Shown piece by piece: positions 4,512 to 58,924 of a stretch of 64,000 bases of DNA (the stretch's first letter is position 1; each line of letters opens with the position of its first letter). The notes below the pieces were generated by a model that was not told the origin of the DNA, made no database searches, and saw nothing but the letters and a program-made list of their open reading frames with translations. This stretch comes from an archaeon (lineage in GTDB: Archaea > Nanobdellota > Nanobdellia > Pacearchaeales > GW2011-AR1). The position numbers and the translations under genes were made by a program. The DNA lies in assembly GCA_018651925.1 (NCBI GenBank), contig JABIDC010000011.1, positions 9,064-73,063 of the forward strand, given 5' to 3'.

Positions 4512-6383
4512 ATGAGTGATATCATTTCTAATTATGGTCCGGCAGAATTTGCTATAAAGCTAAATAAAATAAAACATTACATCGCAAAATTTAAAGATCC
4601 TTCAAAATTTATAAATAAAATTCTTGAATCACTCAATCATCCATTTTATATAATTGATGTAAAAACTTATGAAATAAAATACCATACCTCTGCAACACAA
4701 TTTAAAGAGAATGATAATCCGATTTTTTGCTATGAAACAAATATGGGATTGGAGAGGCCTTGTCAAGAATGTAATAAAAAGGTTATTTGTATATTAAAAA
4801 AAGTTATTGATACTAAAAAACCAATAAAATTACACAAATTTATGAATTTCCAAGGGAAGAAAAATACTTATGTAGAAATCAATGCCACTCCAATATTTAA
4901 TAAAAACGGAGAAATAGCAGAAATAATTAGATATGATCTTAGCATGGATGAATTAAAAAAGAAGAATCAAGAACTAAAAAAAACAAAAAACCAATTAAAC
5001 CTTTTAATGGATTCCCAAAATATCGGAATTTCTCAACTAGATGAAAAGGGAAATTTTAAATTTGCAAATAAAGTTTTTTGTAAAATGATTGGAGTTCCAA
5101 AATCAAAATTAAAAGACCTAAATTTATTAAGAGATTTGGAAGAAGAAGTAAAAAAGAAGTTTAAATTAAAAAAAGAATTTTCTTTTGATTATTCAACTAA
5201 TAAAAGAATTCTTTCTTCAAATTTGGTTCCAAGTCTACAAGAAAAAGAATTCAAAGGATATTTTGGAACAACAACAGATACAACAGAATTGAGCGAAGTC
5301 AAAAAAGAAATAAAAAAATATCAAGAAAAAGCAAATAATTCTCTTTTTGATAAAAAAGTTAAAGAAAGAAAAATATTAAATGCGAAAGAAAAATTATGTC
5401 TTTATGGAATTTGCAAGTATCCGTTGGCATCCGACCAAAAACTTGCATCTAAATTAAACCTAAATCGCTCAACAGTAACTGCGATAAAAAATAGGTTAAA
5501 GGAAGATAATTGGTTTAATTTAGTTTATTGTCCAAATTTTTCTGCCGTTGGGGGAGAAGTAATTACACTATTAATTAATAAATGGAATCTTTCAAAAGAC
5601 AAGCAAAGATCTTCAAAAATAATAAAAGAAATACGCGAATCAGATGAATTAGTTTTTAATCAAGATAATGAATCTCAATCCCTTTCTTTTTTTGTTTCTA
5701 AAAATTATGCAACAATACAAAGAAATTTGAATAAATTTTATCACAAAGATCTAATAAACAATGAGGAAGTTAAGAGGCTGACATTCCTATTAGAATTAGA
5801 TTCATTATATGTGGGCTGTTATTCATCTTTAATCAACCATCACTTTAAATTAAATCTTGAACATACTCCATTGAAAAAAATTGAAAAGATTGAAAAAAAC
5901 TATTTAAAAAATTCAATTAATAAAAAAATCTTTTATTCAATTGCAAAATTCCCAGAATGCTCAATTGAAGAACTTTCAAAAAAAAATTTCATTTCAAAAC
6001 CCACAATTTCTAAAATAAAAAAACAATTAATTGAAAATAATCTTTTAATTCCAAAAACAATGATTAATCTAAAGAAATTAGGCATAAATTCATTACAAAT
6101 AGTAACCTTCGAATTTGAACAAAATATTTCTCAAAGACAAAAAGAAAAAGAAAGAAAAAAATTTGAACCCCAAACAATATTGAAAGTTAAAGGGAAAAAC
6201 AAAGTTACTAGAATGATGTTTTTTGAAGAAAAAGAAGGAACAAAAGCAATAAATGAATTAAGAGAATTCTATAAAAAAGAATTTAATCCCTTTGAAATTA
6301 TTGTAACAAAACATCCCCTTCAACAAAAAACTAACTTCTTTAAAATAGACTTTGCAACACTTTTAGAACAATTAATTTTTTAA
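4512..6383 (+). CDS. PAS-like sensor domain protein with two winged-helix (MarR/TrmB-like) modules; putative transcription regulator
   Basis: Two PAS-like segments are present (HPFYIIDVKTYEIKY...INATPIFNKNGEIAEIIRYD and NIGISQLDEKGNFKFANKVFCKMIG). Two HTH-like segments are present (SDQKLASKLNLNRSTVTAIKNRLKEDNW and SIEELSKKNFISKPTISKIKKQLIENNLL). Confidence 0.5.
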   Translation: MSDIISNYGPAEFAIKLNKIKHYIAKFKDPSKFINKILESLNHPFYIIDVKTYEIKYHTSATQFKENDNPIFCYETNMGLERPCQECNKKVICILKKVIDTKKPIKLHKFMNFQGKKNTYVEINATPIFNKNGEIAEIIRYDLSMDELKKKNQELKKTKNQLNLLMDSQNIGISQLDEKGNFKFANKVFCKMIGVPKSKLKDLNLLRDLEEEVKKKFKLKKEFSFDYSTNKRILSSNLVPSLQEKEFKGYFGTTTDTTELSEVKKEIKKYQEKANNSLFDKKVKERKILNAKEKLCLYGICKYPLASDQKLASKLNLNRSTVTAIKNRLKEDNWFNLVYCPNFSAVGGEVITLLINKWNLSKDKQRSSKIIKEIRESDELVFNQDNESQSLSFFVSKNYATIQRNLNKFYHKDLINNEEVKRLTFLLELDSLYVGCYSSLINHHFKLNLEHTPLKKIEKIEKNYLKNSINKKIFYSIAKFPECSIEELSKKNFISKPTISKIKKQLIENNLLIPKTMINLKKLGINSLQIVTFEFEQNISQRQKEKERKKFEPQTILKVKGKNKVTRMMFFEEKEGTKAINELREFYKKEFNPFEIIVTKHPLQQKTNFFKIDFATLLEQLIF

Positions 6384-7051
6384 TTATTCTTTGGATTTTC
6401 AACATCTCTTTCTTTAAATTTCCTAAAAATCAAAAGAATCAAATATAAAATAATCAAAGAAGAAAGAATGATTAGAATTTGCCGAGAAATTGATTTTTCA
6501 TCTTTTATCTCAAATTCATTTACAAAGAGATCTGTAACATCTTCTCCATAAATAGACTTAAAAACAAATTTATATCTTCCTTTTTCCAAGCTTAAATCCT
6601 CAAATTTCTCGATTACAAATAATTCAGTTTCGACCTCAATCAACTTTTGTCTTTCAAAAACAAGTTCTCCATCTAAATTAAAAATACTATAGGTCATATT
6701 AACCGAAGATTTTTCTATTCCAAAGTTTTCAAACCTTACCCAGGCAGTTAAATCACTGGAATCATAAATTATCTCTTCTGCCAACTCCAGTTTAATATCA
6801 AAGAGTTGGGAAACTTCACTTTCACAACCTCTTGATTCAATAGGGGGCTTATAACTATCCAGACAATCTCCCGCATTAGTACATACTCTTGTTTGAATTC
6901 CATTATCCGGGCACAATTCCGGAGACCATTCTGTACAAAACCATCGATAATTACAAGTCTCTGCACTATCAATAGAACCAGTTATTTCAGAACTAACTAT
7001 TCCAATAAAAAACAAAACAAGACATAAAGAAAACAATTTTACATTTTTCAT
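6380..7051 (-). CDS. Exported Cys-rich / Ig-like protein with a C-terminal TM anchor
   Basis: Signal-like N-terminus followed by EITGS. It has a C..W.C..WS..C Cys-rich module (CNYRWFCTEWSPELCPDNGIQTRVCTNAGDC) and a C-terminal TM helix followed by RKFKERD. Confidence 0.55.
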   Translation of the reverse strand: MKNVKLFSLCLVLFFIGIVSSEITGSIDSAETCNYRWFCTEWSPELCPDNGIQTRVCTNAGDCLDSYKPPIESRGCESEVSQLFDIKLELAEEIIYDSSDLTAWVRFENFGIEKSSVNMTYSIFNLDGELVFERQKLIEVETELFVIEKFEDLSLEKGRYKFVFKSIYGEDVTDLFVNEFEIKDEKSISRQILIILSSLIILYLILLIFRKFKERDVENPKNN

Positions 7052-58800: not shown

Positions 58801-58924
58801 TTCTCGGAACTTTAACGCTTTTTCCAAGATAAGTAGAAATCACTTTGCCATCTTTTTTCTTATTATGATAAACATATGGCCCATAGATTCTCCCATTCTT
58901 TTTTATATACCTTTTATAGACCAT
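46853..58924 (-). CDS. Giant (4023 aa) multidomain surface protein or adhesin, N-terminally anchored
   Basis: One uninterrupted 12-kb ORF, with the SD-like AAGGAGGT about 5 nt upstream of its ATG. It has a basic cytoplasmic N-terminus followed by a TM helix, then an acidic linker. Downstream come a beta-helix, Ig-like modules, an LVIVD propeller, 2 LamG domains, an FG-GAP/VCBS propeller, DUF285/BspA repeats and more Ig-like modules. Confidence 0.85.
48080..48700 (-). repeat. Seven tandem DUF285 / BspA-type leucine-rich repeats (about 26 aa, 78 nt each) in the giant protein (approximate bounds)
   Basis: Seven repeats of F(N/D)(Q/G)(D/N)I(S/G).W(D/N)(T/V)S.V..M...F: WDISEV, WNTSKV, WDVSNV, WDTSKV, WNTSSV, WDVSKV and WNVSNV. 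They produce the antisense shadow ORF 48155..48520. Confidence 0.8.
49190..50260 (-). other. FG-GAP/VCBS-like beta-propeller repeats of the giant protein (approximate bounds)
   Basis: Recurrent D.(N/D).DG..(D/E) blades: [87 protein letters not shown] and [16 protein letters not shown]. Confidence 0.7.
50825..51450 (-). other. LamG/concanavalin-A-like lectin domain 2 of the giant protein (approximate bounds)
   Basis: [11 protein letters not shown]...[18 protein letters not shown]...YSITFWVKF...[19 protein letters not shown]...[20 protein letters not shown]. Confidence 0.75.
51960..52615 (-). other. LamG/concanavalin-A-like lectin domain 1 of the giant protein (approximate bounds)
   Basis: [11 protein letters not shown]...[11 protein letters not shown]...[18 protein letters not shown]...YSIAFWIKF...[19 protein letters not shown]...[20 protein letters not shown] is the classic Laminin_G_3 pattern. 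Confidence 0.75.
52860..53760 (-). other. LVIVD-repeat beta-propeller region of the giant protein (approximate bounds)
   Basis: Six repeats of the type [59 protein letters not shown] and [27 protein letters not shown]. Confidence 0.7.
55500..56740 (-). other. Right-handed parallel beta-helix (PbH1/NosD-like) repeat region of the giant protein (approximate bounds)
   Basis: Many turns of about 22-25 aa, such as NVTIKNCVV..., [12 protein letters not shown]..., [10 protein letters not shown]..., [12 protein letters not shown]..., [11 protein letters not shown]... and [12 protein letters not shown]. Confidence 0.7.

Follow-up and report, generated by a model that had tools for sequence, protein, structure and literature searches.

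We report that a short motif, [LI]TG, recurs just past the N-terminal hydrophobic helix of exported proteins in a 64,000-nucleotide stretch of archaeal DNA (assembly GCA_018651925.1, contig JABIDC010000011.1, positions 9,064 to 73,063 of the forward strand; the whole stretch is called here the window). The motif is real and conserved, and it appears, judged from sequence, to be the signature of a widespread and previously undescribed gene cluster of DPANN archaea that would build a surface filament. We tentatively suggest, at slightly less than an even chance, that [LIVF]-[TS]-G marks a special class of leader, present on the components of this cluster and on several extra cargo proteins of this genome. 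With the same reserve we favour a lineage-specific leader that would be cut after the glycine by a signal peptidase I (SPase I), probably the paralogue encoded in the operon itself. The window has a G+C content of ~30%, its nearest relatives are metagenome-assembled genomes (MAGs) of Pacearchaeota, Woesearchaeota and Nanoarchaeota (DPANN archaea), and the NCBI record for one of its proteins reads 'hypothetical protein HOD88_03630 [archaeon]'.

All eight N-termini quoted in an initial annotation of the window translate as given there, and all contain [LI]TG. They are encoded on the minus strand, with ITG at 6977-6985 (gene 6380..7051) and LTG at 27303-27311, 29141-29149 and 44882-44890 (Cys-rich paralogues 1, 2 and 3, respectively), 38445-38453 (amino acids (aa) 43-45 of p688, a 688-aa protein), 39479-39487 (the signal peptidase), 41687-41695 (aa 35-37 of p202, a 202-aa protein) and 58700-58708 (aa 73-75 of a giant protein). 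Two instances on the same strand had been missed, namely an LSG variant at 43598-43606 in p157 and an ITG within 'GITGQV' at 42174-42182, in the C-terminal juxtamembrane linker of p400. A simple hydropathy caller identified an N-terminal hydrophobic segment in 28 of the 55 window proteins called, and the motif was sought in the ~30 residues past that segment. Eight of these 28 proteins carry [LI]TG, which corresponds to 6 of 23 BLAST families, the three Cys-rich proteins being paralogues of one another. When the residues of the same post-helix windows were shuffled, the mean was 0.74, with P(>=6) = 1e-4, and the value of eight was reached in 0 of 20,000. Indeed, 8 of the 19 [LI]TG of the whole window proteome sit in 952 of its 19,836 residues (4.8%). 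The helix caller and the longest-open-reading-frame gene calls are crude, as parts of some motifs were counted as helix and the motif of one giant-protein orthologue (locus L035) was missed. Two descriptions in the initial annotation need correcting. The motif was said to lie 10-25 residues beyond the helix, but the measured distance from helix end to G is 2-16 residues, and it was said to occur in most of the exported proteins, whereas 20 of the 28 lack it, several having 'small-x-small' sites right after the helix. Classical signal peptides without the motif are found in the proteins encoded at 12266-13111 ('ISA|ETC'), 45075-46739 ('AVA|KVQ'), 40003-41145 and 42042-43244.

The strongest conservation was seen in p202 (41189..41797, minus strand), in which a transmembrane (TM) helix (residues 2-26) is followed by a disordered linker (27-42) that holds LTG and by a beta-sandwich from aa 43. 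At E <= 1e-3 this unannotated family comprises 1,805 representative clusters (50% identity), of which 1,190 remain at E <= 1e-10, and searches of p202 itself against Pfam, NCBIfam and PDB sequences gave no match. Among 195 distinct homologues, aligned irrespective of whether they had the motif, the G column (G37, the proposed -1) holds G in 183, A in 3 and S in 2, with 7 gaps and nothing larger. The column two before it (proposed -3) holds L70, I63, F26, V9 and M5, and the one between them (proposed -2) T151, S22 and A6. Past the glycine, G+1 is F in 60 and Y in 56, G+2 is A in 145, V in 26 and S in 6 with 11 non-small residues, and the consensus continues as T-D-T-G-x-[AV]-N-L-T-[IV]. Thus, the suggestion that an aliphatic -3 and a Gly at -1 fit an SPase I site holds at the family level, and the restriction of the proposed -1 to small residues is the signature of such a site. 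The alternative register G-x-A|, with A at G+2 as -1, fits worse, since V (26 homologues) plus Q, F, L and D are tolerated there, and it also misfits the peptidase leaders. The AlphaFold model of p202 (predicted local distance difference test, pLDDT, 72.9) places LTG in a linker of low confidence that leads from the TM helix to the first strand. When this monomer model was searched against the PDB with Foldseek, the best matches were FimA-type donor-strand pilins (E 7e-5, TM-score 0.37-0.46), a likeness that is suggestive only; TasA was not among the 50 matches listed, and a profile search against PDB sequences gave no hit that would relate p202 to TasA, AbpA or thread subunits. Neither an usher nor a PapD-type chaperone was identified. 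Note that two operons (L111 8138-8791 and L114 9926-10504) also encode another p202-type paralogue, which starts with a classical signal peptide ('AVSA|GYTGS' and 'AVFA|GYTGS') and not with the extended leader and [LI]TG.

We compared the window with 80 genomic loci containing relatives of the peptidase, 37 metagenomic loci containing relatives of p202 and five loci encoding the window proteins themselves, in which open reading frames (ORFs) were called and clustered into families, the counts being family-weighted. Many loci across Pacearchaeota and Woesearchaeota share the same genes in the same order around the peptidase: p157, p400, a 66-aa TM protein (p66), p202, p380, p138, an S26B signal peptidase, p688 and a long p688 paralogue. 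All of them lie on the minus strand of the window. The first gene, p157 (43241..43714), has the LSG variant as 'PLSG-MTIADSDF', and its orthologues have P[LI]SG, PLHG, PLDG or none of these, so that conservation is partial (P-[LI]-x-G). In p688 (36513..38579), a surface protein with a C-terminal TM anchor, LTG is followed by the strand 'NAGLTSATISLVV', and among orthologues of the short p688 paralogue [LIVM]TG is found in 11 of 17 and xTG in 14 of 17. The long paralogue (32531..36469; 1312 aa) has a classical-looking signal end; a VSG at aa ~52 was rejected as an instance of the motif, as it lies inside a conserved domain segment. Two conserved members are without LTG, namely p138 (39603..40019), a small TM-anchored beta protein, and p380 (40003..41145), which is paralogous to p400, combines a classical signal peptide ('ASALG|ASP') with a C-terminal TM helix and gave E 0.034, below the cut-off, with the LPXTG model. 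Behind p138, in loci where no peptidase comes next (L085 7295-8869, L088 4749-6023, L095 6577-7770 and L096 4184-5326), we observed a family of 380-524 aa (c343) whose N-termini read 'STG-FALSAQRHVSFTIG' or 'EQG-TVSLTVEV', that is, Gly and then a strand.

A further instance of the motif lies in p400 (42042..43244, minus strand). This protein begins with a classical signal peptide ('SPLG|ITPGR') and continues with three beta-sandwich domains, a disordered linker and, at its C-terminal end, a TM helix with a K/R tail. Its 'GITGQV' (aa 354-359) stands ~13 residues before the C-terminal TM helix and therefore shows the motif in mirrored topology. We found 324 homologues of p400, the best 120 of which are 54-66% identical to the window protein, and G-[LI]-T-G-x-V is nearly invariant (T356 invariant, G354 and G357 at >=90%). 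The model of p400 has a pLDDT of 85.8, with the linker 356-368 below 50, and matches WxLIP-like and multi-Ig surface-protein folds, in addition to a weak match to PF11797. Distant homologues have 'G-[VT]-G-Y-V-I-S' in place of G-[LI]-T-G-x-V, and the paralogue p380 is without the motif. Directly upstream of p202, the small TM protein p66 (41794..41994, minus strand) ends in the strand 'NGNVQLVVEEPP'. An ORF of this type (~62-72 aa, with an N-terminal TM helix) was present in ~27 of 30 distinct ORFs listed directly upstream of p202, and its C-terminal consensus, G-N-[VI]-x-L-x-[VI]-E-x-P, resembles the first strand of p202; p66 is possibly a membrane-anchored strand donor or a filament anchor.

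As first annotated, the operon encodes an S26B-type peptidase (39110..39562, minus strand; ATG at 39562, the ORF reaching a TTG at 39649), which has LTG past its own TM anchor and in which the Ser, His and Asp boxes of the archaeal/ER-type enzyme (ER, endoplasmic reticulum) are present. Across 41 homologues the Ser box S98-M99-x-P101 is invariant, as are I-V-H137-R-V, which makes the general base His and not Lys, and G155-D156 and D162 of the GDN..D box. Scores against curated models are low (34.3 bits for TIGR02228, under its cut-off of 51.85, and 18.6 against 190 for the SipW model NF046067), and there is no Pfam match; since the three boxes are kept despite these sub-threshold scores, we consider it a short (150 aa), divergent archaeal/ER-type (S26B-like) enzyme. 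The family occurs in two genomic contexts, the operon and a syntenic housekeeping neighbourhood, in which the peptidase adjoins a presenilin-type signal-peptide peptidase (PF06550, E 5e-20) and which also contains, by sequence resemblance, a CCA-adding-enzyme-like gene, a TrmB-like regulator, a beta-CASP nuclease and a proteasome beta subunit. This second context was observed in loci L009, L010, L014 and L018 and in about 40 others. One MAG (Meg19_1012_Bin_451) has an operon copy (L002) plus a second peptidase copy elsewhere (L042); in the contig of the window, the DNA beyond both window ends held housekeeping genes only, and a second peptidase was not found there. The motif [LIVFM][TS]G past the own anchor follows the context, with 14 of 19 operon-type enzymes against 7 of 46 of the housekeeping type (Fisher p = 1.1e-5). 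In the operon-type enzymes it is often the octapeptide of p202 ('ITGFAVDK' and 'ITGFAIDA' compared with 'LTGFAVTD'), and the housekeeping-type enzymes have a conserved 'G-x-E-x-P-F-S' after the anchor. A neighbour-joining tree of the catalytic domain places most operon-type enzymes in two basal clades. Note that DPANN-type peptidases were also found in two bins labelled bacterial (L037 as Ignavibacteria and L058 as Dojkabacteria), the latter also with an archaeal housekeeping neighbourhood; misbinning likely explains both labels.

The initial annotation had considered the recurrence of the motif non-random, and this was borne out by its selective maintenance in orthologues with less than 50% identity, namely those of p202, the short p688 paralogue, the giant protein and the operon-type peptidase. 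The proposed comparison with shuffled controls gave a more divided answer. A raw tripeptide screen of the comparison loci was swamped by 79 peptidase homologues and was repeated with family weights, whereupon [LI]TG past N-terminal helices was counted in 9.9 of 150 families against 2.6 +/- 1.4 in shuffles. For the families without a window member these values were 7.5 of 127 against 2.1 +/- 1.35, and the window-derived pattern [LI]TGx[AVTI] reached 5.0 against 0.50 +/- 0.67, a value met in 0 of 500 shuffles. The excess over shuffles is thus replicated, but it is confined to limited families: across 123 related DPANN sources the rate of [LI]TG past N-terminal helices is only ~2-fold over background, and in an unbiased family-weighted ranking of all 8000 tripeptides ITG comes 11th (p = 3e-3, not significant after correction) and LTG shows no enrichment. 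A general export signal was rejected on these grounds, and the idea of a sorting signal of the lineage did not hold, as the motif is neither lineage-wide nor general; rather, it is a property of a limited set of families, since it is weak in the unbiased ranking and only twice background overall.

How could such a leader work? In our favoured reading, Sec would insert the proteins through the N-terminal helix, and an archaeal/ER-type (Ser-His) SPase I, probably the operon-encoded paralogue, would accommodate L/I in pocket S3 and G in pocket S1 and cut after Gly. The new N-terminus would lie a few residues before, or at, an amphipathic beta-strand ('[FY]ATDTG-TANLTIE' in p202), and the freed strand of p202 could then insert into an adjacent subunit, in the manner of TasA, archaeal threads and type-1 pili. 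Since most motif proteins also have a C-terminal TM anchor with a basic tail, removal of the N-terminal helix is to be expected.

A number of observations weigh against cleavage after Gly by a dedicated enzyme. In five of the eight window proteins G stands 11-16 residues past the helix, far for an active site at the membrane surface, and the F found at -3 in 13% of p202 homologues breaks the classical -3 rule. The motif is also present on the peptidase itself, where a cut would detach the enzyme from its anchor, and in the C-terminal juxtamembrane linker of p400, and strands of the form 'G-x-[VA]-x-[LI]-x-[VI]' in p66, the giant protein and p202 suggest a structural or docking role. None of the curated signal-peptide models, including the SipW-cognate class, recognises these leaders. 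As to the enzyme, the peptidase has a fixed place in the operon in most loci but is missing next to five operons (L085, L088, L095, L096 and L098), in four of which the motif of p202 is still present. Five operon-type enzymes nest among the housekeeping ones in the catalytic-domain tree, seven housekeeping-type enzymes also have the tripeptide, and no fixed residue differences between the two types were found in the catalytic domain at thresholds of 60%/25%. Moreover, gathering of motif proteins around the operon in other genomes was looked for and rejected, because motif families outside the operon are not enriched near operons (1 of 73 versus 4 of 69). Consequently, the earlier proposal of a cognate enzyme-substrate set stands as regards a specialised, operon-linked copy of the peptidase, but is not borne out by the operons that keep the motif without an adjacent peptidase, by the catalytic domain or by the scattered motif proteins outside the operon.

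Some of these points would be expected if [LI]TG-x-[AV] were a docking or beta-strand element, i.e., the start of a juxtamembrane strand or a linear motif, with any signal-peptide cut elsewhere or none. Subunits, anchors (by way of the p400 C-terminal linker and the p66 C-terminal strand), adhesins and the peptidase would then be gathered at one assembly site by a partner that all of them bind, for instance an Ig domain of p400 or p138 or the acceptor groove of p202. We regard this as unlikely, though worth serious attention. It would account for the motif on the enzyme (14 of 19 operon-type peptidases, often as the octapeptide of p202), for its near-invariance in the disordered linker of p400, before and not after a TM helix, and for the resemblance of the p66 end 'G-N-V-x-L-x-V-E' to the first strand of p202 and to a strand of the giant protein. 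It also agrees with conservation in p202 that extends past three residues ([LIF]TG[FY]ATDTG) and with FimA as the best match of the predicted p202 fold, and chaperone-usher pilins are known to have an invariant Gly in their N-terminal donor strand. In contrast, the G column takes A and S and nothing larger, and the residues after G in p202 ('FATDT') are polar and do not alternate with hydrophobic ones, the real strand beginning 7-8 residues later. The Cys-rich proteins and p223 (the product of 6380..7051) have just 5-8 residues from G to their disulfide-rich domain, which leaves little room for a strand. An uncleaved N-terminal helix plus a C-terminal anchor would staple the proteins to the membrane at both ends, and the giant protein and Cys-rich paralogues 1 and 3 offer no further acceptable -3/-1 site from helix to motif.

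Cleavage after Gly may also need no dedicated enzyme. Any cellular SPase I would then cut this ordinary site, the operon peptidase being a second (or in some lineages the only) copy of unchanged specificity, and the motif would be conserved because of the task of the mature N-terminus. Archaeal/ER-type SPases tolerate L/I at -3 and G at -1 (the -3/-1 rule), which counts for this explanation, as do the absence of a catalytic residue that distinguishes the two peptidase contexts, a tree that is not cleanly bipartite, the operons without an adjacent peptidase and the motif-bearing proteins of housekeeping-type loci (L014_3674, L073_2437 and L073_4138). In addition, archaeal bundling pilins (ABP) and thread pilins use a generic SPase I (PMC9245690, PMC9715654). 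We nevertheless consider it rather improbable. The other exported proteins of the same loci mostly have 'A-x-A'-like sites directly after the helix, and because such classical sites dominate there, the extended leader with [LI]TG forms a distinct class. Furthermore, the place of the peptidase in the operon is fixed across deep divergence, its own leader tracks the operon context (p = 1e-5), and at least one genome has an operon copy plus a second copy elsewhere.

A broader proposal would make [LI]TG the sorting signal of a new archaeal system, in which a dedicated S26B paralogue would read a juxtamembrane tag in either orientation, on the N-terminal anchors of pilin, adhesins and cargo, on the C-terminal anchor of p400 and on its own anchor. 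The proteins would be released or handed into a donor-strand attachment filament of DPANN cells, with processing possibly coupled to assembly, and the system would be an N-terminal counterpart of sortase/archaeosortase logic. This seems to us doubtful, and less probable than the explanations above. Finally, chance, composition (AT-rich codon usage), paralogy or a DNA-level repeat is very hard to credit as the origin of the motif: the weak tripeptide ranking, the ~2-fold overall enrichment, the three paralogous instances among eight and a P(>=6 families) of 1e-4 that fails correction for all possible tripeptides speak for it, but the orthologue alignments largely refute it, through column-level conservation in hundreds of orthologues below 50% identity and in non-homologous families, and the replication of the extended pattern in families without a window member and the tight tie to operon context in the peptidase family also count against it. 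As for DNA repeats in particular, WTRACTGGW occurs 14 times against 4.9 expected, the excess being mostly six matches to in-frame motif instances, and codons vary among orthologues; this cause was rejected.

The initial annotation had known of no described archaeal N-terminal sorting signal of such form, and our literature searches likewise found no paper on an LTG-type leader or a donor-strand system in DPANN archaea; the idea itself, though, has a precedent in the logic of SipW with TasA and TapA. All that a survey of archaeal 'dark matter' contains in this respect is an uncharacterised secreted family specific to DPANN (PMC6393860). SipW, encoded in the operon of TasA and TapA, processes their leaders (PMC9245690), and the candidate system is alike in having an archaeal/ER-type SPase I paralogue inside the operon of a secreted beta-sandwich fibre subunit and accessory proteins, its presumed substrates. 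Further likenesses are a leader motif shared by the substrates and lacking from the general signal peptides of the organism, an aromatic residue beside the (here proposed) cut, and a mature N-terminus that feeds the donor strand (PMC9245690), which is proposed for p202. The two differ in the motif itself, [LI]TG|[FY]A here and another in TasA. The TasA site is reportedly cut as G-T-W-A|A-F-N-D. They also differ in the leader, which is longer here with G up to 16 residues past the helix, in the folds that p202 matches best (FimA-type pilins, not TasA), in the presence of the motif on the enzyme and in the C-terminal linker of p400, and in the host lineage, DPANN archaea. Indeed, TIGR04088 (the SipW-cognate class) matched neither the whole proteins at E <= 1 nor ten isolated N-termini at E <= 10, and the candidate substrates had no Pfam or NCBIfam match to Peptidase_M73 (TasA/camelysin).

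The thread pilins of Sulfolobus (Saci_0406) and the bundling pilins of Pyrobaculum (AbpA/AbpB) offer a second comparison, as they are processed by SPase I, which exposes a donor strand (PMC9245690, PMC9715654). Their small beta-sandwich subunits lose a Sec/SPase I leader, and this exposes the N-terminal strand, as predicted for p202; accessory multi-beta-domain proteins are encoded alongside, and there is a structural resemblance to bacterial type-1 pilins or TasA (PMC9715654, PMC9245690). Unlike the proteins of the window, they have classical sites (LVA|DV, AMA|TL) and a generic peptidase, with no dedicated peptidase gene nearby. The WxL surface-protein loci of Gram-positive bacteria, with their WxLIP proteins (DUF916 + DUF3324), resemble the cluster in the weak PF11797 match of p400, in the match of its model to the WxLIP of E. 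faecium (9i25, 9i1y) and in that p400, too, is a multi-beta-domain protein with a C-terminal anchor, encoded among surface proteins (PMC10599100). The cluster described here has no WxL-domain proteins and no peptidoglycan, and the resemblance is at the level of domains only. We know of no dedicated peptidase or leader motif in WxL loci.

With LPXTG/sortase and PGF-CTERM/archaeosortase systems and with class III prepilin signals, the candidate leaders share a short conserved motif beside a membrane anchor and a (here proposed) dedicated processing enzyme, and with LPXTG also the T-G pair and, in p400, the order of motif, TM helix and basic tail. In contrast to those C-terminal signals, 8 of the 10 instances here are N-terminal, after the helix, and only p400 has the motif before a C-terminal TM helix, from which it stands ~13 residues away and does not abut. 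No sortase, archaeosortase or prepilin peptidase was seen among the annotated genes of the window, and a C-terminal sorting signal was rejected. In class III signals the cut falls ahead of the hydrophobic stretch and the mature protein retains the helix; a class III prepilin signal was rejected, since here the helix comes first, 2-16 residues before the motif. Class III-like N-termini proper ('SPVIATVLMV') do occur in other proteins of related loci (cluster 191). A lipobox was rejected as well, as Cys is at +1 in 0 of 10 window instances, and in p202 the +1 position holds F, Y, L, R, H and others, Cys not being among the eight commonest residues of the column.

Pacearchaeota, Woesearchaeota and Nanoarchaeota are ultrasmall, mostly uncultured archaea for which a dependence on other cells is commonly predicted, and to our knowledge the way in which they construct surface structures for holding partners is largely undescribed. 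The cluster brings together a pilin-like subunit, anchors, large adhesin-like proteins and its own copy of a signal peptidase, and a short motif links these parts. If [LI]TG were a cognate cleavage signal, it would provide a simple sequence rule for finding the cargo of the system in metagenomes and, after SipW-TasA, a second independent case of a signal peptidase specialised for fibre assembly. The proposed cleavage after Gly would also offer a biochemical handle on organisms that cannot be cultured, through peptide cleavage by two paralogous enzymes.

Among the other motif carriers, all encoded on the minus strand, the giant adhesin-like protein (46853..58924; 4023 aa) begins with an N-terminal extension of ~50 aa, followed by a TM helix, LTG and the strand 'NVSISIDE', and contains beta-helix, LamG, DUF285 and LVIVD domains; its orthologues have 'AF-LTG-FASLD' in L035 and keep the G in L060. 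The giant proteins adjoining the operon (58775-58924 on the minus strand of the window; L035 491-8179; L060 1408-7701) have in common the pre-TM extension 'YK.Y.KNGK.YGPY.YE..R..GK....YLG', which is presumably cytoplasmic. It superficially resembles the KxYKxGKxW leaders of giant adhesins of Gram-positive bacteria and matches no curated family (DUF6788 at E 0.002, in L035 only). In Cys-rich paralogues 1 (26094..27461), 2 (28025..29314) and 3 (43760..45019), LTG is the sole invariant tripeptide between the helix and the Cys domain. The ITG-bearing p223 (6380..7051) is a Cys-containing type I membrane protein; in operons L111 and L114 its homologues come straight after p138 and read 'SVG-A-ITLTIQ' instead.

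Several neighbouring genes complete the picture of the window. Behind the p688 genes, 29323-32506 (minus strand) encodes a MoxR AAA+ ATPase, a DUF58 protein and a VWA/BatA-like membrane protein. A MoxR gene also stands behind the p688 genes in L004, L005, L016, L020, L022 and L098, and because of this recurrence the module could be part of the cluster. Cys-rich paralogue 3 and the giant protein are separated by the gene of the 554-aa secreted protein mentioned above (45075-46739, minus strand; classical signal peptide 'AVA|KVQ'), which has weak matches to reprolysin/M64-like zinc metalloproteases. A stand-alone Cas4-like PD-(D/E)XK nuclease (PF12705, E 6e-33) is encoded at 19698-20570 (plus strand), with no CRISPR-Cas among the annotated genes of the window. 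At 61786-62034 (minus strand), an 82-aa ORF contains several tandem 'KKKVV' repeats, and the opposite strand reads as an F/T-rich repeat ORF (61772-61981).

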